NCBI GenBank assembly: GCA_963754875.1
Contig: CAVWHO010000001.1
Coordinates: 1-64,000, forward strand
Length of the DNA stretch: 64,000 bases
Source: Nitrospirota bacterium
GTDB taxonomy: Bacteria; Nitrospirota; UBA9217
Direction: 5' to 3'
The notes under the pieces were generated by a model, which worked only from the letters and a program-made list of their open reading frames with translations, searched no databases and was not told the DNA's origin. How positions within the stretch are numbered: the first letter of the stretch is position 1; each line of letters starts with the position of its first letter. Of the stretch, positions 49,827 to 62,362 are shown one piece after another. The position numbers and the translations under genes are program-made.

Positions 49827-50457
49827 TGAACTGAAACGCGACTACCGCTTGAAGAGGCCGCAGATCGTGAAGCGCCTTGCCGAGTTTAGGAAAAGGTATA
49901 CAAAAGGCGACCGCGCGATCTTCGAAGAGCTCTGTTACTGTATCGTGACTGCCGGCAGCAGTGCGAAGATGGGCATGAAGACGGTGGAAGCGCTTCAAGA
50001 TATTTTGCATTCGGGAAGCGAGCGGGAGCTTCGAAAGCGAGCACAGGCGCACCGTGTGAGGTTCTGGCGCGTCCGGACTTCCTACATCTATCACACCCGC
50101 GAATATTTGCGCGATGCCTGCGGCCTCAAGCTCCGCCGGCTGCTTGAGTCCTTCGACTGCCGGGACGCCCGCCGAGATTTTTTCGCACAGAACAAATCCG
50201 TCAAAGGCCTGGGGTATAAAGAAACGAGCCACTTCCTCCGGAACATCGGTTTTCCCGGATATGCTATCCTTGATAAACACATCATGAACAGCCTCCGCGA
50301 AATGGGTGTGATCAGTAAAAGCATGCGCCAGACGACGCGGACCGGATACCTGGAAATCGAGAAACGGCTTGAACAGTTTGCTCATGAGATCGGAATCGAT
50401 ATGGACCATCTCGACCTGCTCCTGTGGTCGCGAAAGACGGGAGAAATATTGAAATAA
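49804..50457 (+). CDS. 8-oxoguanine N-glycosylase/DNA lyase, OGG2 type
   Basis: FEELCYCI, HhH VKGLGYKETSHFLRNIG, AILDKH, C-terminal LDLLLW..TGEILK. Confidence 0.85.
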   Translation: MPGKELIDELKRDYRLKRPQIVKRLAEFRKRYTKGDRAIFEELCYCIVTAGSSAKMGMKTVEALQDILHSGSERELRKRAQAHRVRFWRVRTSYIYHTREYLRDACGLKLRRLLESFDCRDARRDFFAQNKSVKGLGYKETSHFLRNIGFPGYAILDKHIMNSLREMGVISKSMRQTTRTGYLEIEKRLEQFAHEIGIDMDHLDLLLWSRKTGEILK

Positions 50458-51355
50458 CAGCGGACGGCAGGCAAGCAGGGTGCTCCAGAAGTGGTGCGGG
50501 ATTGCATTATCCTTGCGAAAGCTCTTGGGTATTTGAAAGCATGTGTCGTGATTTTAAATGAGCGCATGGAAGTAGAATGGTGCAAGAACCAGCATTTATG
50601 TTTACGTGTATTGTAAACGCTTTTAATGACCGGCCGTAACATCAGTGAATATCCTCCTCTCCCTGGACAACGAATAGAAGCAATTATACATTTCCTGTAT
50701 CCTTTAAAGTTTCCATTTCTCTAAACTGATAAAGCTGCCATTATCGACACCATCTACCCCACAAAAAATTTAACATCTTTGACCTCACCGGGGATCGCGC
50801 GGCAACTCCAGCTGTAATCGATTTCATCGATAAGCCCCTAACAATATTGATTATTCCATGGCCGCGCCTCCTTTGCAACATGTGCAATCCCCCCAAAAAG
50901 TCACCCAAAAAAGCCATAAAAAAAGCAAATCTTAACTTGACGTACGCATCGAAAAATGATAAATAATCCCCACACTATTCAAGTCCCTTCCTTCTACTAG
51001 AGGTAATCATCTTCCTTGTTTGCGAAGGTCATCCAGATAGATGGACGCACCAGGGAACGACGTCATATGTTCCCGTCGACAGCGGCAGATCATCTCCGTG
51101 AAGTTGAACGCGCACATTGCTGAAAAATTTTTTGTCTTGACTTGAACAAATAAAGTCTTTTTTGCCGTACCTCCAACCTTGAAGAGTAGAGTCGCAACAT
51201 TCGCAAAGTAATCAATGGGAAGCACGAATCAAGCAGGGGAAGGTGTGGACGCCGTCTCTGTATTGATGGCTCCTGCCCTGCCGTTTCTTTGATACAACTT
51301 ACAAAATCAACCTAAATACGCCCGCCGGCAACAATGTGCGCAGAGGAGCAGCCCT

Positions 51356-52054
51356 ATGAGGAAACGGAGAGCCGTCGTTATCGATGACGAAGAGATTATT
51401 ATCCATCTGTTAAAGGATTTTTTTTCCACAAGGAATTATGAGGTGCTCTCTTATACGAGGCCTGTTGTTTGTCCGATTTCTGATGATAAAGGAAATCCCT
51501 GTAACACCGATTATCCTTGTGCTGACGTTGTCATCACGGACTTCAATATGCCCGACATGAACGGTCTTGAGCTGCTCCAGGAGCAATCGACGCACGGATG
51601 CAAGCTGATGAGGCAGAATAAGGCAGTGATGTCGGGGTATATTGATGAGGAGAGTCAGAAACAGATCAAACGACTGGGATACGCTTTCTTTCAAAAACCG
51701 ATAGAATTCGCTGATTTTTCAGCCTGGCTGGACGAGTGTGAAAAAAGGGTGGATCTTTCGAAGCCGTTAGGCTCTCGGAGAAAAGAAACACGGCGTGCAA
51801 CCCAGTACGAGGTGCGATGCCTGGTGGATCTTACGAACGAACTCGTGAACGGCTTGACCGTCAATATCAGCGACGGCGGTCTCTGCCTCAAGCTTGCAGC
51901 CCCTCTCGTGACAAAGCAGACAATACACCTCGATACGGTTCACCCTATTTTGGCATGCCGCACTGCATCGGTGCAGTGGGTGAGTAGGAATCAGGACGGC
52001 TCGTATCTGGCAGGTTTGTCTTGTCATCAGGATCACGCAGCGGCCCAACTTTAA
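51356..52054 (+). CDS. Receiver + PilZ domain protein
   Basis: IDDE, ITDFNMP, FQKP; PilZ RRKETR and NISDGG. Confidence 0.85.
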   Translation: MRKRRAVVIDDEEIIIHLLKDFFSTRNYEVLSYTRPVVCPISDDKGNPCNTDYPCADVVITDFNMPDMNGLELLQEQSTHGCKLMRQNKAVMSGYIDEESQKQIKRLGYAFFQKPIEFADFSAWLDECEKRVDLSKPLGSRRKETRRATQYEVRCLVDLTNELVNGLTVNISDGGLCLKLAAPLVTKQTIHLDTVHPILACRTASVQWVSRNQDGSYLAGLSCHQDHAAAQL

Positions 52055-52207
52055 ATGCTATGCGCAATTCTTTTAATTGCCCTCGTCACAATTGTGCTTG
52101 CAGCAACTGCCAAATGCAAATACTGTTCACTACAGTAATCAACTCAATATCATCACGCTATTTTTCGCATTTCGTTTTTTGCTTCCTACTGCCTACCGGG
52201 GGTGCTC

Positions 52208-52507
52208 ATGTCCGACAAGGGACTTAAAAAGGCGGTTCTCGTCGGCGCAGTGCTCGGCGCACTCATTACACTGGGCATCGCCCTGTCCATGGATCTGTTC
52301 TTTTCCGACTCCCTTCAGGGGACCTGGCGGGACGCTTCAGCGAAGGACGTGACCAAGATGTTCGGACCGGCATGCGGTCATAACGTTTTTGTCGTGTACC
52401 TGGTCCTCGTCATTGTGATGGGGTTCCTGGCGGGTTTCGGGGCGATGCTCGGCGCGGCCGCAGGCCTCATAATGAACCGGTTTTTTAAAATGGTGTTGAA
52501 ACTGTAG
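52208..52507 (+). CDS. Small hypothetical membrane protein
   Basis: Two hydrophobic helices; host-like codon usage. Confidence 0.65.
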   Translation: MSDKGLKKAVLVGAVLGALITLGIALSMDLFFSDSLQGTWRDASAKDVTKMFGPACGHNVFVVYLVLVIVMGFLAGFGAMLGAAAGLIMNRFFKMVLKL

Positions 52508-52523
52508 AACCTTAGAGGCGATT

Positions 52524-52600
52524 CACCTCCCCAACCCCTCCTTGGCAAGGAGGGGAGTAAGTAAGTTCCTCCCCTTATCAAGGGGAGGCCAGGTGGGGTG
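52524..52600. repeat. Double-hairpin palindromic element
   Basis: CCCCTCCTT-GGC-AAGGAGGGG and CCTCCCCTT-ATC-AAGGGGAGG inside outer CACC/GGTG arms. Confidence 0.75.
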
Positions 52601-52653
52601 CTTTCAGTTGGCGCGCTGAGCTATCAGGTTAGAAATTTGAAGGCAGGAAAATG

Positions 52654-52686
52654 AGAACGGATGAACTCTACAGGTTCATCCGTTCT
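52654..52686. terminator. Hairpin between convergent genes, probable terminator
   Basis: AGAACGGATGAAC-N7-GTTCATCCGTTCT (13-bp stem). Confidence 0.7.
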
Positions 52687-52702
52687 TTAATTATCGGAAG
52701 GT

Positions 52703-54457
52703 CTATTTATTCGGCAGCAGAGGGGAAAAGGGGTTGCGCGAGCGCAGGTCCTGCCGGACTTCCGAGAGCACCAGTTTCATGATGTTCGGCACTTTGAGCT
52801 TCCAACCCTTGACGGGCCAGTCGAGCTCATGCTTGCCGCACACGATATCGAGCGTATTCAGGCTGAAAATCTCTTTGCGCAGCTCGTCGTCAATATGTTC
52901 GGGATCGGTGATTTTTTCACTCAGGACGATCGCCCGCTCAAGATGATCCCGGAGCTTTAAGGCGGTCTGCTGGCTGACGGCCCCGTATTGTTCCTTGATC
53001 GCAAGAAGCTTTAAAGCCCCATCGTAGGTAGCCTTTACGATCTCATCCCTCGTCATCCACTTCGTTTCGTAGTTCAGCGAGAATTTCCAGCTCGGCTGGA
53101 GCATGGCTTGCCGGTGTTCTTTCAGGGTCTTCGCGAAAAAACGGTACCCGTATTTCTCCGGGTTCTCGAAAATAACGCTGCCGGGGTCGATGAAAGGCGC
53201 GAGCGGCGCGATCAGGGGAAGTACTTTTCCCCGGTTGCCGTTGCTGCCGAACTTCTCCAGGAGTTCTCCGCAGTAGGAGACGGTGTCCATGACCGACTGG
53301 TAGGTCTGGTTCGGCAGCCCCACCATGAAAAAGAGGTCGACCCGCTTGCACCCGACGTCGATGAGTGTCTCGATCATCCCCTCGAGGGCGTTGTTGTCGT
53401 AATCCTTTCCAAAGGTCTTGCGCACGTTGATATCGTGCGATTCCGGCGAAATTTCGACGTTGAACGTTTCGATGCAATCCGCCGCTTTTTTGAGGAACTC
53501 CGTCGTCGGCGGTCTGAAAAATTCGATACAGATCTCGTTCCTGATGCGGTGCTTCTTGACGGCCTCCAGGAACCGATCGCTGTACTCCCGCCCTGCCTGC
53601 AGCAGGTCCCCGAGGACGATCATCGGCGCCCCGGTGTAATCCGCTATCTTTCTGATGTCCTCGGCCATGAGTTCCGGTGAACGGAAACACGCATGGGACC
53701 GTTCGCATATTGTTTTAAACGCTGAAATCGACCCCCCGCAGGTGCCGCAGTTGTGGTTGCATCCGCGGACGGAAAAGATCGCGGTCACAGGGTAGCTGAG
53801 CCAGTACCTGAACGGTATGTATCCCGAGGGGTCCCGGTACTTGATCGCCATCTTGAGAAGATGGGCGTAATCGAAGTCCACGTAATCGAGGTTCTCCGGC
53901 TTGAACGAGCGTTCGTTTACCCTGACGCGGCCCTGTCCATCCCTCCATACGAGGTTCGGCACCTCTTCGAATCCGGAGCCGGCTCGTATCGCCTGCATCA
54001 GCAGCCTGAGCGGTTCTTCGGTGGATTCGCCGCAGACGATGAAATCCACAAAGGGATAGTCCCGCATGATCTCTTCGTGATAGTACGTCGCGCTGAGGCC
54101 GCCGAGGATGACCGGTTTTTCGGGATGATATTTTTTGACCATTTCCGCAAGGCTGAGGCTTCCATCTACGTGGGGCAGCCAGTGCAGGTCGATGCCGAAT
54201 GCCCCGGCGTCAAGGTTCTTGACGAAACGCTCAGCGTCGAAGGAGGGGGAGCGCAGCATCCTGAGGGCCATGTTGATGATCCGCACGGAGATGTTGTGCT
54301 TGGTCAGATAACTCGAAATGGTAAGAAACCCGATGGGATAGATTTCGAAGATCGACGAAGACGGCACGACGTCGCTCACCGGGCCGAAAAAGAGCGGCAA
54401 ATCGCGGAAACGGAAGACGCTCGGCGGGTGGAGCAGAAGCAGATCGGGCTTAGGCAT
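52703..54457 (-). CDS. B12-binding-domain radical SAM protein (TIGR04190-like)
   Basis: DLLLLHPPS, FEIYPIGF, GIDLHWLPH, LGGLSAT, RGCNHNCGTC (CxxxCxxC), ISPESHD, FFMVGLP. Confidence 0.85.
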   Translation of the reverse strand: MPKPDLLLLHPPSVFRFRDLPLFFGPVSDVVPSSSIFEIYPIGFLTISSYLTKHNISVRIINMALRMLRSPSFDAERFVKNLDAGAFGIDLHWLPHVDGSLSLAEMVKKYHPEKPVILGGLSATYYHEEIMRDYPFVDFIVCGESTEEPLRLLMQAIRAGSGFEEVPNLVWRDGQGRVRVNERSFKPENLDYVDFDYAHLLKMAIKYRDPSGYIPFRYWLSYPVTAIFSVRGCNHNCGTCGGSISAFKTICERSHACFRSPELMAEDIRKIADYTGAPMIVLGDLLQAGREYSDRFLEAVKKHRIRNEICIEFFRPPTTEFLKKAADCIETFNVEISPESHDINVRKTFGKDYDNNALEGMIETLIDVGCKRVDLFFMVGLPNQTYQSVMDTVSYCGELLEKFGSNGNRGKVLPLIAPLAPFIDPGSVIFENPEKYGYRFFAKTLKEHRQAMLQPSWKFSLNYETKWMTRDEIVKATYDGALKLLAIKEQYGAVSQQTALKLRDHLERAIVLSEKITDPEHIDDELRKEIFSLNTLDIVCGKHELDWPVKGWKLKVPNIMKLVLSEVRQDLRSRNPFSPLLPNK

Positions 54458-55097
54458 GGACGGTTTCATCTCCAAAAATTTTTCTGGTAAAGACGTCGGT
54501 CATGTCGTTCGTTATCTCCTCCATGGCCTGGTACATGACATCGGCGTAGGAGCCGATCGCTTTGTTCAAGGGGCCGAAGAGGCGTAGGGAATGGCTCAGT
54601 ATCCTTGTTTCCTCATTATAGAGGTGCAGGATGTCCACGAGGCGTTCTTTGAATTTCGTTCCCGTGTAGGCGTTTCTGGCGGCATCAACAAAAGACGCTT
54701 CCTCCGGCCAGTTCGACAGGAGAGCGTAGACGGTTTTGGAAATGAGCCAGATGCGCTGGATCCGGATGTCGGCGAAATCGCTGTAGCGCAGGTGGAAGGA
54801 TAGGGAAGGAATGATAAGATTATTCAGAAAGACCTTGTCCACTTGTTTCGTTTTCTCGAACATATCTTCCAGGTCCAGATCGCAAATGGGCCTCCCTGCT
54901 CTATATTCTCCTGCAGCCACCTCGATGATGAGCCGGTCTTTGTCGACCTCTTTTTTGACATTCGCATCCAGGTAGGCTGCGAAGAAGGGGAGGCCGGCGA
55001 GCAGCAGCGAGTGCCGGCCGGCGCGGCTGAGGCTCTGCCGGGAAAAACTTTCCATCATGTCCTTGTCTTTTTCGCACAGGATTGCAACCCTATCCAC
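54450..55097 (-). CDS. Hypothetical soluble protein, translationally coupled on both sides
   Basis: 215-aa ORF overlapping the methyltransferase stop and the radical SAM start by 8 bp each. Confidence 0.75.
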   Translation of the reverse strand: MDRVAILCEKDKDMMESFSRQSLSRAGRHSLLLAGLPFFAAYLDANVKKEVDKDRLIIEVAAGEYRAGRPICDLDLEDMFEKTKQVDKVFLNNLIIPSLSFHLRYSDFADIRIQRIWLISKTVYALLSNWPEEASFVDAARNAYTGTKFKERLVDILHLYNEETRILSHSLRLFGPLNKAIGSYADVMYQAMEEITNDMTDVFTRKIFGDETVHA

Positions 55098-55797
55098 GTT
55101 TCACCGCCGTATACAACGTTGCAATGCCGAACGTCATTGAATCAGCCCCTATGTTCTCGAAACCGCTTTTGTGAATCATGTCCTTGAATTCGTCGGGCGG
55201 ATAAAAGGAGTTAATGGAACGGGGCAAATAGAGGTAGGGCGCAGCGGTCTTAACGACCAATTTCCCGATCAACGGCATGATCTTAAAAACGTACCACTCG
55301 TAAAGGAAGCGGAACCAGCGGTACTGGGGCCGCGTCAGTTCGAGGCAAACGAATTTGCCACCCGGCCTAAGGACGCGATCTATTTCCCGCAGCGCCAGGG
55401 CCGTATCGGGGATGTTGCGCATGCCGAAGGAGACCGTAACCGCATCGAAGGTGTTGTCGCGGAAAGGAAGCCTCTTGGTATCGGACAGGATGAAAGAGAG
55501 GTTCGCATGATCCCCCCCCTTTTTGAGCCGCGCGCGATCGAGCATCTCTTCGCAGAAGTCGGACCCGGTGACCGAACCTCGCGGACCGACGCGGCGGGAG
55601 AGCAAAAAGGCAAGTTCGCCGGTCCCGCTGCAGACGTCGAGTACGCGCTCACCCTCGAGGATGCCTGAGCGCAGAACAGCCTCTCTGCGCCAGAAGCGGT
55701 CAAACCCGAAGCTGAAACTGCTGCTGAGGAAGTCGACGTAGGGGGCCACTGTCGTGAAGATATGTTTGATAAAGAGGTCACGCTGTTCTAATGACAT
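55090..55797 (-). CDS. UbiE/MenG-family quinone C-methyltransferase
   Basis: SFGFDRFWR, VLDVCSGTGE, LPFRDNTFDAVTVSFGMRN, RVLRPGG, YLPRSI, MTFGIA. Confidence 0.88.
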   Translation of the reverse strand: MSLEQRDLFIKHIFTTVAPYVDFLSSSFSFGFDRFWRREAVLRSGILEGERVLDVCSGTGELAFLLSRRVGPRGSVTGSDFCEEMLDRARLKKGGDHANLSFILSDTKRLPFRDNTFDAVTVSFGMRNIPDTALALREIDRVLRPGGKFVCLELTRPQYRWFRFLYEWYVFKIMPLIGKLVVKTAAPYLYLPRSINSFYPPDEFKDMIHKSGFENIGADSMTFGIATLYTAVKRG

Positions 55798-55800
55798 ATA

Positions 55801-56616
55801 TTAGTAGAGGAACTGTCCCACCACGATCAGAATGAGCAGGCCGAAGCCGACCAGGACCACGGCAAAGCCGAACAGGATGCCCGCATCGGTGATCCAAGTC
55901 TTTTGCGGCGCGACGAGGTATGCATCAAGCCGGTTCTCAGCCACAAGGCGCTGGTATTCGAGAGGGCGATCATGCTGCAGTTCATGGAGCGTAAGCCTCC
56001 CGGTGAAGATGACCGGATCCATGGGGAATTTTTCCGGCCGAAGGTGAGTATTGAAGTAATGGATCGTGAAGATGAAGCCGGCCGCGAGGAGCGCTTCATC
56101 GCTGTGAATGACCGTGGCAATGTTGAACGCCCATCCGGGCAGGAAGCGGCCGAAGAATTCAGGGAACCAGAGGAACAGGCCTGATACGCCGATCATGCCC
56201 ACGCCCCAGAACACCGCCCAGTAGTCGAACTTTTCCCAGTACGCGAAGCGGTCGAACTGCGGCCGGGGCCCCATGCCGAGGAACCAGCGGAAGCTCCCGA
56301 TGATGTCCTGAAGGTCCTTGAGCCAGGGCACCATGGATTCCGGCCCCACGATGTTGAACTTGAACTTCCGTACGATCGCGATATCGTAAATGACATACCC
56401 GATGTGGGCGGCGAAGTACCCAAAAGTGATGACGGCGCAAATCCGGTGAATGAGCCCGGCTGCATAATACCCGCCGAGGAGCCTCATGAGCCACGCGGCC
56501 CAGGGAGCGTTTGCATACTTGAGCGGCATGCCTGAGGCCACAAGACCGACGAAGCTCACGGCCATGGCGACATGGAGTACCCGGTGATAGGCGTTGAAGC
56601 GTTTTATCTCAGCCAC
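55801..56616 (-). CDS. Cytochrome b subunit (FdnI/HydC-like)
   Basis: HRVLH, IHRICA, WEKFDYWAVFWG, HSDEALLA..FTIHYFNTHLRP. Confidence 0.88.
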   Translation of the reverse strand: MAEIKRFNAYHRVLHVAMAVSFVGLVASGMPLKYANAPWAAWLMRLLGGYYAAGLIHRICAVITFGYFAAHIGYVIYDIAIVRKFKFNIVGPESMVPWLKDLQDIIGSFRWFLGMGPRPQFDRFAYWEKFDYWAVFWGVGMIGVSGLFLWFPEFFGRFLPGWAFNIATVIHSDEALLAAGFIFTIHYFNTHLRPEKFPMDPVIFTGRLTLHELQHDRPLEYQRLVAENRLDAYLVAPQKTWITDAGILFGFAVVLVGFGLLILIVVGQFLY

Positions 56617-56617
56617 G

Positions 56618-57601
56618 TTACTCGCCCCCTTTTTTGCTCATGCGCTCTTTCAGCGAGCGGTAGGCCCACAGGAACGTGTGGGTGAAAAAGAATGCGAAGG
56701 TGCCGAGCAGCAGCACGGTCATGCCGAGGAAGGTGTAGTACAGCACCGGGTATTTCGTACGGTCCTTTTCCTCGGCATGAGCATAGAATTTGGTGAAGCC
56801 CGACGTGGCCGCAGGATGGCATTTCTGGCAGGTCGTGAGGATATTTTTCTGCGAGAGCGTCGAATCCGGGTTGTCGATCCTTTGAATGCCGTGGGACCCG
56901 TGGCAATCCGAGCACTTTGCCACGGTGGCATAGCCGAGTTCCGTCACTTTGCCGTGGTACGTTTTGCGGTAGGTCTTTATTTCTTCGGAATGACAGTTCC
57001 CGCACTGTTTAATCAAAGACAGCTGCCACTGGTTGCTCGCCGTGGGAGGTGTCAGGTGCTCCAAATGGCACTGGAAGCAGGTAGGCGCTGCCGGGTTGTT
57101 GTCTTCCAGAAGCTGTCTACCGTGAATGCTGGTTTTATAGACCTCGAACTCCTGAGGATGACATTGGGAGCAGAGGGCCGGAATCTTCTGTCTGTTCGTG
57201 GCGGACCGGGTGTCAGCGGAGGGGTAGATATAGTGAGAGCCGTGACAGGTCTGGCACGTCGGCGCGCCGGCATTTCCCATTGCTTTGGCCTGGTTGTGCA
57301 CGCTCATCTTGAACTGCTGGGCCTGCTCTTTCGGGGCGCCTTCCGTGCCGATGAAATGGCAGGCCCCGCAGTTGACTTTCGAGACATTTGCGTGCGGATA
57401 TCCTGATATGTCGTAATGACATTTGGTACAAGCCAGATGGCCATGTGCGGATTGCTCGAACGCCGATCTGTCTATGTACCCCTTCATGCCCTTCTGGCCG
57501 TGACAATCATAACACATGTCTTTGGCAACAGCAGGCGAAGGGAACAGGAAGTATGAAACAACAAGGAGAAGTGTGAGGTGTTTCATGAGTGAGGGATTCA
57601 T
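56618..57601 (-). CDS. Membrane-anchored nine-heme cytochrome c
   Basis: Signal peptide, nine CxxCH motifs (CYDCH, CTKCH, CGACH, CQTCH, CSQCH, CFQCH, CGNCH, CSDCH, CQKCH), C-terminal TM. Confidence 0.93.
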   Translation of the reverse strand: MNPSLMKHLTLLLVVSYFLFPSPAVAKDMCYDCHGQKGMKGYIDRSAFEQSAHGHLACTKCHYDISGYPHANVSKVNCGACHFIGTEGAPKEQAQQFKMSVHNQAKAMGNAGAPTCQTCHGSHYIYPSADTRSATNRQKIPALCSQCHPQEFEVYKTSIHGRQLLEDNNPAAPTCFQCHLEHLTPPTASNQWQLSLIKQCGNCHSEEIKTYRKTYHGKVTELGYATVAKCSDCHGSHGIQRIDNPDSTLSQKNILTTCQKCHPAATSGFTKFYAHAEEKDRTKYPVLYYTFLGMTVLLLGTFAFFFTHTFLWAYRSLKERMSKKGGE

Positions 57602-58051
57602 GACTACATTCTAGCAAAGAATCACAGGCTGTCAAGGCGACCCCGGATTTTCGGAGAAATAAATTTCATTGCGATCGAAACGCGGCGCTTCTTCATGGCA
57701 GAATGACAGAAGAAGATTGATTGCAAAGGCATTTTTAAATAGTAAACGCTCCTGGCGTGAAAAGAGGAGGGATCAGGTTTCGGTTAAGCCCTTGTGGCCG
57801 AGCATAATGTTTCATTCTTCTTCATGAGGAACAGTTAAGGAGTTTATAATGTGCAGTCATGGAGATGTTTTTAGTCAGTTATAAATCAAAAAACTCCAAG
57901 CAGAATGTATAGAAAAAAATCGATTCTTTTTGACAGGATCACAGGGTTGACAGAAGTTTCAGGATGAAATGCTTTCATCGGCTTTTATCCTGCCCGTGGC
58001 CTGTGGGCTTGAACCTTTTAGTAAACATGCTGCTCTACGGTTAAACGATTC

Positions 58052-58087
58052 TTGACACTCCCACCGCTAAAGCATGTGGGTTTTCTC
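58052..58087 (-). mobile_element. Remnant resembling an IS200/IS605 right end
   Basis: Minus strand GAAAACCCACATGCTTTAGCGGTGGGAGTGTCAA: subterminal hairpin ending TCAA; no tnpA/tnpB nearby. Confidence 0.55.
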
Positions 58088-58242
58088 GCGCTGGTTTCCA
58101 TAAACTGAGAACGCATCGTAAGGCCTGGTTCAATCTGAAAGATTGAACCAGCGACAGAGTGAACGGCGGATTTTTCAACAGCCTGTTAGACGGAAAGTAT
58201 GCATGGTCATATCGATTTACGGTAAAATGCAAGGAGGAGGAA

Positions 58243-58578
58243 ATGATGCGAGATAAACCGAAAGAACCTTTTACCCCACGGGAAACACATGATACGATCA
58301 GGCAGGAGATCATTGCCGAGCTTCTCCAGGGCACGTGCTCTGCCAGAGATCTTTCCGCTGCGGCGAAGATCCCGGAACGCGAGGTATATACTCATCTCGA
58401 GCACATCCACAAGTCCCTTGCTTCGTCTGACCGGCATTTCATCATCACGCCTGCTGAGTGCAAAAAGTGCGGTTTTGTTTTTGCAAAACGGGAAAAGCTG
58501 AAGAGACCGGGAAAGTGCCCGGTGTGCAAAGGAGAATCAATCCGGGGACCTCTCTTTGCGATCGAGGACTCGCGTTAG
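58243..58578 (+). CDS. HTH + zinc-ribbon putative transcriptional regulator
   Basis: TIRQEII..L, SARDLS..EREVYTHLEHI, CKKCGF...CPVC; RBS AGGAGG. Confidence 0.85.
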   Translation: MMRDKPKEPFTPRETHDTIRQEIIAELLQGTCSARDLSAAAKIPEREVYTHLEHIHKSLASSDRHFIITPAECKKCGFVFAKREKLKRPGKCPVCKGESIRGPLFAIEDSR

Positions 58579-58583
58579 CGTGG

Positions 58584-59762
58584 TCACGATAGTGCGCGGC
58601 TGGCGGTCGTTTTCGTGCTGTCGTTGCCGGGGAGAAGAAGGAAGGGAAGGTGTGCAAGAAGCCACAATTGGAAATGCACGTAATCGGTCTTTCCCGCCGG
58701 AATGTCGAGAAACCGCAATAAGGCTTCGGGATGTTCGAAGAAAATGCGGAGAAAGAGACGGGGATGCCGATCGAGCAAATGCGCCAGACGTAGCGCAACA
58801 CGCAGCTGTTTTGTGATCCGGTCATCGGTTTCCCGGCAATACCGCGCGATTACGGCTGCCGGACGCGTCTGATTTTTGATTGCGTCAGCGACAGCGCGGG
58901 CGGCGAGCTTGCCGGAGAGGATGGCATGAGATATCCCTTCGCCGTGGAAAGGATCTGCAAATCCTGCAGCGTCCCCTGCTAATAATACCCTGCCCCTGGC
59001 GACTGATCTTTTGATCCCTCCAAAGGGAATGAAGTGGCCTTGCACGTCTGAAAGTTCGATGTTTAACGTCTCGGCGAGTTTCGTCAGCGCTTCCCGGGGT
59101 TTGGAAAAGCGCGCTGCAAGCCCCGCAATCCCGGTGGAGAGGTAGCCGCGGTGCGGGAAGAGCCAGCCATATCCGACCGGCGCGGTCCCGAAATAGAGGT
59201 CGAGGGTCTTGTCCAGCCGGTTCCTGATATCCTGTCCCTCCGCAGGAATCTGAGAAACGAGCGCAAGCGCCATGCTGCCCTTGTCCAGCGGAGGCCTCAG
59301 GGTACGTGCCGCCTGGCTGTGAATCCCGTCAGCGCCGACGACAAAGAGGGACCGATAGGTCCTATTTTTTGTTGCAACTTCTGTGAAGTCTCTGCCATCC
59401 CGAACAGCGATGACCTGCTCGTTCGTACGAAAATCAGCTCCGCTTTCGACGGCCTTCTCCACGAGGAATGCGTCGAAATATTTTCTCGTTACAAGAACCG
59501 CGAACGGGGTATTGCGCGTTGCATTCACTACATGACCTTCCCGGTGGACCCGGACGCTCATGCATTCTTCCTCGATGATGGCATCCGGGAGACTGAAGTC
59601 GAGATACGAGAGTGCCTGCAGGGAAACGGCGCCTGCACAGGGTTTTGATCTCGGGAACGTATCGCGGTCCAGCAGGAGTGTTTTGAGCCCTTGTTGTGCG
59701 CATGTTCGCGCAGAGGTGGAGCCTGCCGGCCCGGCTCCTATGACAATGACGTCGTACATCAT
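58584..59762 (-). CDS. Geranylgeranyl reductase-family flavoprotein
   Basis: DVIVIGAGPAG, FPRSKPCAG, R..FD..L, GADG, GYGWLFP, LAGDAAGFADPFHGEGI. Confidence 0.9.
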   Translation of the reverse strand: MMYDVIVIGAGPAGSTSARTCAQQGLKTLLLDRDTFPRSKPCAGAVSLQALSYLDFSLPDAIIEEECMSVRVHREGHVVNATRNTPFAVLVTRKYFDAFLVEKAVESGADFRTNEQVIAVRDGRDFTEVATKNRTYRSLFVVGADGIHSQAARTLRPPLDKGSMALALVSQIPAEGQDIRNRLDKTLDLYFGTAPVGYGWLFPHRGYLSTGIAGLAARFSKPREALTKLAETLNIELSDVQGHFIPFGGIKRSVARGRVLLAGDAAGFADPFHGEGISHAILSGKLAARAVADAIKNQTRPAAVIARYCRETDDRITKQLRVALRLAHLLDRHPRLFLRIFFEHPEALLRFLDIPAGKTDYVHFQLWLLAHLPFLLLPGNDSTKTTASRALS

Positions 59763-60153
59763 CAACTCTTTACTCTCCCTGAAAACAGAATAGAATTGCG
59801 GACGGCTACGGATGAACGCAAAGGAAATTTTCGATGGTTTTACTGCCTTGCCCCTCACCTTGGTCTTTCCTTGATGCAACAACATTTACTTCATTTGCAT
59901 TAGTATAGCCTATGCAACTCGTTTGATAAGTTTACCAAACTGAACATCGAATTGCAAAATATTTGCTGTATTTGACCATTTTCCGGTTTCTGCATTACGG
60001 TCTTTTCGTCTGACCCTCACAATCAGGCACAGTGGAATGGGCGAACGACCCTTCGTACGGTTACGGCCGGAATATTCTCAATCTCATATAAACAGAATTT
60101 TGCAAAGCAAAATCAGTGTCACTAAAGTTCTCATTCTTTGCTAAAATGAAGAC

Positions 60154-60474: not shown

Positions 60475-62362
60475 ATGATCGTCAGGATGGCCAAAGTTGA
60501 AATCGTGGGCGCAAAAGGGCTGCTTCAGGACGTTCTCGTGTGCCTTCGCGAACTCGGTGTGTTCCAGATAGAACCGGCAACGATCGGTTTTCTCGAAGCG
60601 GGACATGAAGATGATATCCGCGCTTTCATGCCCGACGAAAAAACAATGTTCGAGCGGGTCTTTCTCGAAGGGCTGCGGACCAAGGTCACCGAGCTCCTGT
60701 CGGCGCTGCCGACGCTGCCGAGTGCGAAACAGCTATCTCGATCCACGTCCGGTCATTGATACGGTCGGGGCGATCGTTGAACGGCATGCAGCGATGATCA
60801 AGGTGCGGAATGAGCGGAAAGAGGAACTCAAAAAAGAGCTCACTGAGCTTGAACGGTATGCTCTTTTTCTCGGAACGCTGGCCCCTCTCGTCGAGAGCGT
60901 CAAGGAAACGCCGGACATTGATTTTATCGGACTGACTATACGGGAGCCCGATATGGTGGTCCGTCTCAAAGAAGCGCTCTCACGCATCACAAACTGGAAG
61001 TACGAGCTGGTGACGGAACCCGCGGAGGACGGCTCCCTGGTGGGGCTGATCACCGTGGAGCGTGACCTTGCCGACCGCGTAAAAAAGACCCTGAGCGACG
61101 AGCAGGTGCCGGAGCTGACGTTTCCCGCCGTCCTACAGCAACCTCACCTTTTCGGAAAAGGTCGTCTACGTGAAGAAGAGGATCGCGGAAGTTTCGGCGG
61201 AAGTGCAGGGAATCGATGCTGAACTTTCACGGTTTACCCAGCGCTGGGCCCCGATCTACCGGAGCGTGCGGGAGTGGATCGACGACCGGCTGGCGGTGCT
61301 GTCCACGACCGCGGCGGCATTTGAAACGCGGATGTGCTTCTTCATCAACGGGTGGATGATGGCGAAGGAGGTCGGGAGGCTCCGGACGACGATTGCAGCA
61401 GGACTTTCAAGGACGGCGTGGTCCTGGATGAGAAAGAGCTGCGCGAACATGATCTCGACCGCGTTCCGATCATTCTGAAGAACCCTCCCTACTTCAAACC
61501 ATTCGAAATCTTTACGAGCATGCTGCCGCTGCCCGCTTATACGTCCTACGACCCGACGCCGTTCATCGGCATTTTCTTCCCCGTCTTTTTCGGCATGATC
61601 CTCGGCGACGCGGGCTACGGTCTTTTCCTCGGAAGTCTCGCCTTTTTCCTGATGAGGAAGTACAGGCAGAAGAAGATGATCAGGGACGGGGCAAAGATCC
61701 TGCTGGTTGCGTCGGCCTATACCATTTTCTTCGGCATCCTGTTCGGCGAGTTCTTCGGAGACCTGCCCGAGCGGCTCTTTCACCTGCAGCCCCTCTGCAT
61801 TGAACGCAGGACCGCGATCGTCCCGATGATCTTCTTTACTCTTGCCGTGGGCGTGGCGCACGTACTCCTTGGGCTGCTCTTCGGCGTTATCGCGGAGTTC
61901 AGGAAGAAAGAAACGAAAGAAGCCGTGTATAAACTCCTGAGCATCGTCGTGGTGCTGGCCATGATCGTGGTGCTCGCTTCCTTCTTCAACGTATTGCCCA
62001 CAGTGCTGGCCAGGCCCGTCATCATCGGCATTTTGTTCCTGACCCCGATTCTGTTCTTTACCGGCGGTCTTCTGGCGCCCCTGGAACTTTTGAAGAACAT
62101 CGGTAATATCATCTCCTATGTCCGTATCATGGCGATCGGCCTCACGTCGGTGCTGCTCGCCTTTGTGGCGAACAATCTCGGCGGCCTGACCGGCGACGTC
62201 GTGACCGGCGTGGCAGTGGCCGGGCTGCTCCATCTCCTCAATATCATACTCGGCGTGTTCTCGCCGACCATCCATTCGCTCAGGCTCCACTATGTGGAGT
62301 TCTTCAGCAAGTTCATGCAGCAGGGCGGGAGGAAGTTCGAGCCGCTGAGCAAGACACAGTGA
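60475..62362 (+). CDS. V/A-type ATP synthase subunit I (a), broken by at least three frameshifts
   Basis: MAKVEIVG, FFINGW, DPTPF..FFGMILGDAGYG, NIISYVRIMAIGL, HSLRLHYVEFFSKF. Confidence 0.88.

Follow-up and report, generated by a model that had tools for sequence, protein, structure and literature searches.

A TIGR04190 radical SAM enzyme as a candidate cobalamin-dependent menaquinone ring methylase in a cytochrome-menG operon of Nitrospirota

Introduction

Methylated menaquinones let anaerobes operate at lower redox potential, and methylation of the ring lowers the potential of menaquinone from roughly -70 mV to -120 to -170 mV. The methyltransferase MenG converts demethylmenaquinone to menaquinone. 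The present study concerns 64,000 nucleotides of a Nitrospirota bacterium (assembly GCA_963754875.1, contig CAVWHO010000001.1, positions 1 to 64,000), here called the window, in which five consecutive genes on the minus strand encode a nine-heme cytochrome c, a cytochrome b, MenG, a protein of 215 aa and a B12-binding radical S-adenosylmethionine (SAM) enzyme of the family TIGR04190. The latter is proposed as a candidate cobalamin-dependent methylase of the menaquinone ring.

The enzymes MenK, MqnK and MenK2 are HemN-like, belong to class C of the radical SAM methylases and make methylmenaquinones by methylation at C8 or C7; MenK2 acts on C7 (PMC10114718). The motifs YFxxxRxE and QxTxYPLx were described for MenK (PMC10320005). 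Only class C enzymes are reported as makers of methylated menaquinones (PMC10114718; 10.1101/2025.09.17.676790). A cobalamin-binding radical SAM gene next to a gene for a UbiE-type methylase is found in Nitrospirota in the methyl-plastoquinone cluster of Leptospirillum (mpqA, mpqC, LFE_2124, mpqE), and the same source attributes the futalosine route to anaerobic Nitrospirota (10.1101/2024.07.27.605408). The cytochromes can be compared with CbcL of Geobacter sulfurreducens, a diheme b / nine-heme c menaquinol oxidase that works at low potential (10.1101/2022.08.31.506072).

Results

The radical SAM enzyme belongs to TIGR04190 and has a class B architecture

The last gene of the operon (52703..54457, minus strand; 584 aa when read from ATG) encodes the predicted menaquinone ring methylase. 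The longest frame opens at a TTG at 54475, but for most orthologues the alignment begins at residue 1 of the protein read from the ATG. The protein matched TIGR04190 with 640.1 bits versus a cut-off of 500, and the next family reached 53.8 bits. A B12-binding domain (PF02310, 50.7 bits, cut-off 32.1) is followed by a radical SAM domain (PF04055, 37.6 bits, cut-off 29.5). The CxxxCxxC cysteines C233, C237 and C240 were conserved in at least 90% of 60 alignment rows, and the family has the specific motif G[IL]DLHW.

The structure model had a predicted local distance difference test (pLDDT) score of 94.2. The top Foldseek matches were TsrM, MgmA, TokK and CysS, with E values from 8e-17 to 1e-14 and TMq values of 0.48-0.57. 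These class B methylases share the whole-chain fold and the CxxxCxxC motif with the enzyme; in contrast, the identity is 11-14% and the G[IL]DLHW motif is peculiar to TIGR04190. By its domains and modeled fold the enzyme is thus assigned to class B, i.e., the cobalamin-dependent radical SAM enzymes. As the four proteins matched almost equally, this fixes the class, not the reaction. A sequence search of the PDB gave weak matches alone (best E 3e-7).

TIGR04190 has thousands of members: among 8000 scored proteins, 4643 matched at E <= 1e-60. The family is named after Ta0216, which we take to be a Thermoplasma acidophilum locus. No paper naming TIGR04190 or assigning its function was found, with most subscription papers being outside the reach of the search, and the literature matches listed for "Ta0216" comprised unrelated papers only. 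The operon resembles the Leptospirillum cluster in that a cobalamin-binding radical SAM gene adjoins a gene for a UbiE-type methylase. However, the Leptospirillum cluster belongs to the benzoquinone pathway of aerobes, whereas the host genome of the window has mqnC, and its MenG scored below the MpqE cut-off (NF052510, 211.5 versus 335 bits); TIGR04190 is set beside LFE_2124/MpqQ by description alone.

TIGR04190 is linked to menaquinone genes in separate lineages

To follow the family elsewhere, we inspected the 80 top-scoring loci among 596 found in a genome scan, together with 20 loci from Coriobacteriia and 20 from Thermoplasmata. The closest link is gene fusion. Two representatives of clusters at 50% identity are single chains that exceeded both the TIGR04190 and the MenG cut-off, namely P0244 (826 aa, two records, one of them from Actinomycetota) and P0279 (893 aa), and a genome locus (L192) also encodes an 826-aa TIGR04190-MenG fusion. 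In Coriobacteriia, menG was located downstream of TIGR04190 in 10 of the 20 loci, and multiheme cytochromes were often upstream among the 20; the same position of menG was seen in five loci of the Coriobacteriia/Actinomycetota type.

In Thermoplasmata, three of the 20 loci (L196, L198 and L199) have TIGR04190 between a pair of mqnA/D-family and mqnE-like genes on one side and mqnC on the other. The mqnC scores were 440.7 in L199 and 452.2 in L196 (cut-off 428.1), and all three loci are among the best TIGR04190 scorers. A menA-like gene was present in the neighborhood of 8 of the 80 loci, several of which also have a polyprenyl synthase gene and a second radical SAM gene; in L126 and L148, menA is directly upstream of TIGR04190. 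In a FastTree phylogeny of 30 family members, the quinone contexts fell on separate, well-supported branches, indicating that they are not one inherited arrangement; the backbone of the tree was poorly resolved.

Further neighbors were observed. In L113, L114, L119, L123 and L128, TIGR04190 recurred in a cluster with another radical SAM gene and with menA, a polyprenyl synthase gene or both; the second radical SAM gene of these clusters is weakly PTO1314-like (124 bits versus a cut-off of 306), and menB and mqnC were not found in these genomes. TIGR04190 was located near selA, mostly directly upstream of it, in L102, L104-L107, L109-L111, L118, L120, L122, L124, L125, L134, L142 and L147, frequently preceded by genes for formate dehydrogenase and a UshA-like selenoprotein. 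A fusion of TIGR04190 to TatC is encoded in an Elusimicrobia record (L121:8001-10433, 810 aa) and was also seen in P0242 (814 aa), and tatC is close to TIGR04190 in L128 (L128:10213-11043), L215 and many Coriobacteriia loci. A gene for an ArsA/GET3-type ATPase is beside or near TIGR04190 in L067, L068, L073, L121, L155 and L197; these represent several lineages and include second copies in Nitrospirota.

TIGR04190 coexists with MenK and is almost exclusive with a MenK-family paralog

For the comparison with the class C enzymes we used PRK08629, which we take to be the MenK/MqnK family. As a positive control, the MenK motif YFxxxRxE was found in 22 of 23 PRK08629 proteins and QxTxYPLx in 20 of 23. 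The host genome has no PRK08629 match over the cut-off (the best, at E 3e-14, are fragments on another contig), and none of its radical SAM open reading frames (ORFs) contains either motif. The MenK family was also missing, at the cut-off, from all 15 other Nitrospirota carriers of TIGR04190, and was found in one of five non-carriers.

The 161 Coriobacteriia genomes gave a different distribution: 85 have both families, none has TIGR04190 only, 23 have the MenK family only and 53 have neither. Since every one of the 85 Coriobacteriia carriers has MenK-family genes as well, an outright replacement of MenK by TIGR04190 is ruled out; TIGR04190 tracks the capacity for methylmenaquinone without replacing MenK.

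One clade of MenK-family paralogs (FastTree support 1.0) has QxTFSPLY instead of QxTxYPLx. It was analyzed in 13 of the 19 TIGR04190-negative genomes with at least two MenK-family copies and in 41 of the 85 positive genomes. All 13 negatives had the clade, compared with a single genome among the 41 positives; among the positives in which all MenK-family copies were seen, the count was 0 of 34. The exclusion could be followed within a single clade of 17 genomes, in which 12 negatives have the QxTFSPLY paralog and five positives lack it, the two groups being interleaved on the tree. A bias check on the lower-scoring MenK-family copies of five further positives revealed canonical copies at all eight new loci. 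The QxTFSPLY clade is probably MenK2.

Taken together, TIGR04190 and MenK/MqnK/MenK2 share a proposed product class, the methylmenaquinones, and the distribution of TIGR04190 is nested with that of the MenK family and partly exclusive of its members. They differ in that TIGR04190 has an N-terminal B12-binding domain, no HemN domain and no MenK-type motifs, and coexists with canonical MenK. In environmental Coriobacteriia, second MenK-type copies (L238, L240; N-terminal sequence only) were observed beside hydrogenase cytochrome b-like and maturation-like genes.

The cytochrome pair resembles CbcL in architecture

The first gene of the operon (56618..57601, minus strand) encodes a c-type cytochrome of 327 aa with exactly nine CxxCH motifs and matches to PF14522, PF14537 and PF09699. 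It has two hydrophobic stretches, a signal-like N-terminus (residues 8-26) and a C-terminal membrane anchor (residues 286-304). The second gene (55801..56616, minus strand; 271 aa) encodes a cytochrome b, probably of the FdnI / hydrogenase type, the matches of which to TIGR01583 (E 1.5e-10) and PF01292 (E 4e-5) were both short of the cut-off. It has four hydrophobic stretches and six histidines that did not vary across the 29 aligned orthologues, and it is predicted to carry a diheme quinol site.

As in CbcL, nine c-hemes are combined with a cytochrome b, here of a putative FdnI type, without an Fe-S, Mo or NiFe subunit. In contrast, CbcL is one two-domain protein, whereas the pair in the window is encoded by two ORFs 1 bp apart, which are separate genes in relatives too, and is coupled to candidate quinone-tailoring genes. 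The likeness is judged from architecture, by which the pair would be a two-gene counterpart of CbcL; as c and b are encoded by two genes, it is not filed as CbcL. The host genome also contains a cytochrome c/b pair paralogous to this one, at 27% and 39% identity, as well as a HemN/HemW-like gene split into three (G000:C21:22825-24328, G000:C21:154148-155171).

The operon is conserved within one Nitrospirota family

TIGR04190 was detected in 35 of 301 genomes of the phylum, confined to two families. In the family of the host, 30 genomes were compared, of which 20 were represented by loci (19 intact, one cut by a contig end) and 10 were further genomes (seven intact, three partial). The five-gene order was thus complete in 26 of 30. 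The partial cases comprise one locus without either cytochrome, one without menG and one in which the last two genes are retained together with a piece of the cytochrome c gene. Of 37 same-family genomes, 21 contain an orthologue of the cytochrome b (at least 70% identity), and exactly these 21 also gave a strong match to TIGR04190; one further fragmented genome contains pieces of cytochrome b only. In the second family, the cytochrome pair is convergent on TIGR04190 in one locus (L071); this was not so in five other loci. The pair is a Nitrospirota-specific partner of TIGR04190, as other lineages have different partners or none.

The initial annotation had described a tightly packed five-gene cluster with gaps of 1 and 3 bp and 8-bp overlaps, and both the spacing and, in the relatives, the gene order were confirmed. 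It had also likened the nine-heme c and b cytochromes to CbcL; the architecture matches, but two proteins are encoded, not one.

MenG is the housekeeping enzyme and the 215-aa protein appears lineage-specific

The third gene (55090..55797, minus strand; 235 aa) encodes the demethylmenaquinone methyltransferase MenG/UbiE, with matches to TIGR01934 (231.8 bits, cut-off 158.35) and NF001244 (223.3 bits, cut-off 216). It was the sole copy found in the host genome, and a MenG match was present in 39 of 61 genomes, with one copy in every one. A dedicated second copy for quinone tailoring is thereby ruled out. Seven same-family genomes that lack TIGR04190 have menG without the other four genes, in five cases with the same PF0610-family flanking gene as in the window. 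Hence, the operon contains the housekeeping menG in its normal genomic position, and the other four genes, which lie on both sides of menG, were gained or lost together.

The fourth gene (54450..55097, minus strand) encodes a soluble protein of 215 aa without a Pfam or NCBIfam match and without a membrane stretch. It has 162 homologues; the named homologues of this protein and of the TIGR04190 enzyme are mostly from Nitrospirota. The model is all-helical (pLDDT 87.7). Comparison with PDB folds gave no match at Z >= 8 (best Z 6.2) and the best Atlas score was 0.75, neither of which demonstrates a new fold. A complex prediction for this protein and the radical SAM enzyme scored 0.02. Among the TIGR04190 loci inspected, it was seen in Nitrospirota loci only, and it is therefore no general requirement of the TIGR04190 enzyme.

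Putative transcription signals and flanking genes

The ORF list places all five genes on the minus strand, with intergenic distances of 1, 3, -8 and -8 bp along the operon. A promoter-like site (57608..57635, minus strand), consisting of a -35 TTGACA, 16 nt and an extended -10 TG-TAGAAT, matches 11 of 12 consensus positions. This strong sigma-70-like site, identified by its consensus match alone, ends 6 nt ahead of the first ATG, from which a leaderless operon transcript is predicted. A terminator-like 13-bp hairpin (52654..52686, minus strand) lies 16 nt past the last stop codon. Scans of the window yielded one promoter site versus 3.6 +/- 1.8 in shuffled sequences and 11 terminator sites versus 6.5 +/- 2.6. 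As these totals are not clearly above the shuffles, the two calls rest on position and quality. An Rfam scan of window positions 50000-60000 gave no match, and neither did plasmid records at E 1e-30.

Several features flank the operon. A gene of the geranylgeranyl reductase family (58584-59885, minus strand; TIGR02032 over the cut-off) and the PF0610-family gene (58216-58578, plus strand) are both near menG in many relatives. As a guess, saturation of the quinone's side chain might be its role for the reductase; the MenJ model gives 74 bits only. A gene for V-type ATPase subunit I (60475-62362, plus strand) is split over several reading frames, due to frameshifts or assembly errors; the relatives at L077 and L078 have a single ORF of about 625 aa. 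On the other side, a stretch of lower G+C content with a response regulator-PilZ gene (50640-52054) is missing from this place in the loci of relatives.

Discussion

A scheme for the TIGR04190 enzyme

We regard it as the most probable reading, with a probability of about 0.6, that TIGR04190 is a cobalamin-dependent methylase of the benzenoid ring of menaquinone, the product of which is predicted to have a lower potential and to be used by the cytochrome pair. The futalosine route would supply the ring: mqnC of the host genome exceeded the cut-off, which fits the report of this route in anaerobic Nitrospirota. MenG would add the C2 methyl, the family being assigned from sequence and the activity from established knowledge. 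The TIGR04190 enzyme would then move a methyl group from SAM via cobalamin onto the ring. Because of the mutual exclusion with the QxTFSPLY paralog, its site would most plausibly be that of this second MenK-family paralog elsewhere, probably the MenK2/C7 site. The cytochrome pair would link the modified quinol to periplasmic carriers, with both the direction and the quinol preference being presumed. The 215-aa protein may be an accessory, lineage-specific helper; this is the weakest step.

The initial annotation had envisaged a cobalamin-dependent route to a modified quinone, encoded beside the oxidoreductase that uses it, and an association of the radical SAM family with quinone genes and cytochrome b. 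The association with quinone genes was borne out, with MenG fusions, the mqn cluster and menA connecting the family to menaquinone genes in separate lineages. The cytochrome b link held in that both genes share 21 of the 37 same-family genomes, and it is Nitrospirota-specific. The route itself gained from these ties, from mqnC and from the lack of the MenK family in the host; on the other hand, MenG turned out to be the housekeeping enzyme, the cytochrome pair is restricted to Nitrospirota, and the enzyme is no simple replacement of MenK.

Several observations weigh against a ring methylase. The near-tied fold matches at 11-14% identity do not tell methylases from other B12-dependent radical SAM reactions. 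Among 50 distant carriers, mostly incomplete metagenome-assembled genomes, menB was not found in any and mqnC was found in eight and missing in 42, so that most of them could make menaquinone only by salvage of a naphthoquinone. A menG match at E 1e-25 was present in 27 of 44 distant carriers (17 lacked it) and in none of three carriers tested from the Nitrospirota family f3, and menG-like matches were also seen in 11 of 18 Thermoplasmata non-carriers. A menA-like match was found in 36 of the 50 distant carriers, in 17 of these 36 over the cut-off. In favor of a quinone role, at least one of menA-like, mqnC and menG was present in 49 of the 50, with menA counted in carriers alone. Outside the Nitrospirota, however, the commonest neighbors were selA (16 loci) and, in 12 loci, a gene for a MoxR ATPase rather than quinone genes, and many TIGR04190 neighborhoods contain no quinone gene at all. 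The exclusion has a counterexample in G365, which holds both TIGR04190 and the QxTFSPLY paralog; its counts span related genomes, kin not being independent, six other positives were judged on one copy, and the MenK2 label of the paralog is itself an inference. Lastly, the methyl group of thermoplasmaquinone is placed at C8 (or 5/8), a position that would be at odds with a role at C7.

Alternative functions

Part of the evidence for a ring methylase would equally support a different late step in quinone formation, such as a MenG-independent C2 methylation, a methylthio transfer of the methionaquinone type, a missing late step of the futalosine route or a change of the prenyl chain. The gene context is the same for both, a menA-like gene is present in each of the 17 carriers that lack menG, menA is directly upstream of TIGR04190 in L126 and L148, and TIGR04190 lies inside the mqn cluster in L196, L198 and L199. 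Genes for polyprenyl synthase, uppS and geranylgeranyl reductase recur nearby, and T. acidophilum makes methionaquinone (PMC10821996), the enzymes for which are described as unknown in a recent report (10.1101/2025.09.17.676790). However, where TIGR04190 is fused or coupled to MenG no C2 substitute is needed, relatives with menG alone lack TIGR04190 and so seem able to dispense with it, mqnC is missing from 42 of 50 distant carriers, and the exclusion with the MenK-family paralog points to ring methylation. We consider such a different late step unlikely. The many carriers without a known ring pathway and neighbors such as uppS, polyprenyl synthase, geranylgeranyl reductase and ArsA-type ATPase genes would also fit a modification of a non-quinone membrane lipid or isoprenoid, as performed by Cgm, Pgm, Ted and the hopanoid methylases, with the closeness of menG reflecting a shared isoprenoid supply. 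B12-dependent radical SAM lipid methylases, together with a desaturase, were reported from Thermoplasmata and Bathyarchaeota (10.1101/2025.10.20.683597). Yet TIGR04190 spans bacteria and archaea, the membrane lipids of which differ, the MenG fusions and the position in the mqn cluster are hard to explain in this way, and the HpnR, HpnJ and ladderane models stayed below 40 bits versus cut-offs of 360-650. Cgm, which modifies glycerol dialkyl glycerol tetraethers, is stated to be restricted to archaea (10.1101/2025.10.20.683597), whereas TIGR04190 exceeded its cut-off in Nitrospirota, Coriobacteriia and other bacteria; it is set apart from Cgm, Pgm and Ted by description, and the word "quinone" does not occur in the main text of that source. 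A lipid substrate appears quite improbable.

The neighborhoods raise yet another explanation, in which TIGR04190 follows respiratory operons because it matures or modifies redox proteins, e.g., selenocysteine-containing formate dehydrogenase, hydrogenase, multiheme cytochromes or a Tat substrate. This agrees with neighbors such as selA (16 loci), selB, formate dehydrogenase/FdhE, hydrogenase, ccm, hyp, mobB and tatC genes, with the TatC fusions of 810 aa (L121) and 814 aa (P0242), and with the protein methylase MgmA among the top folds. Against it, the partner enzymes vary by lineage, and what most of them share would be a link to the quinone pool; moreover, the MenG fusions, the insertion into the mqn cluster and the exclusion with the MenK paralog are left unexplained. 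We consider a maturation function very improbable.

Thermoplasmata and methanogens

TIGR04190 was found in 83 of 201 Thermoplasmata genomes. Thermoplasmaquinone is a methylmenaquinone, and no MenK-family gene was found in three high-scoring Thermoplasmata genomes tested (G592, G547, G623). For T. acidophilum, 97% thermoplasmaquinone was reported under anaerobic conditions, and also methionaquinone (PMC10821996).

In methanogenic Thermoplasmata, uppS and TIGR04190 are located beside an Fpo/Nuo-type operon (L205, L206, L209-L214). All five carriers examined with this arrangement have mcrA over the cut-off, and all five contain an adjacent pair of menA-like and menG-like genes elsewhere in the genome (L222-L226); of the proteins scanned, menA was over the cut-off in two of three and menG in two of two. 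Neither menB nor MenK was found in the two mcrA carriers tested. Quinones are not known from lipid surveys of the type species of these methanogens, although such a result would be expected to vary with the growth medium. According to a review, the Fpo-like complex of these methanogens is presumed to be in direct contact with HdrD (PMC7374477). As a speculation that we rate as doubtful, TIGR04190 could be a widespread quinone tuner that, together with salvage by menA and menG, enables anaerobes without a ring pathway to build low-potential methylmenaquinone from scavenged naphthoquinones, and this quinone would be the membrane carrier that is missing between Fpo and HdrD in methanogenic Thermoplasmata.

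Implications

If TIGR04190 is a menaquinone ring methylase, it would represent a second, B12-dependent (class B) route to low-potential quinones in many anaerobic bacteria and archaea. It would then be a candidate gene for thermoplasmaquinone formation in archaea where no MenK was found, and quinone predictions would change for Nitrospirota, Coriobacteriia, Thermoplasmata and others. For methanogenic Thermoplasmata, a salvaged and further methylated menaquinone would offer a testable alternative to a direct contact between Fpo and HdrD.

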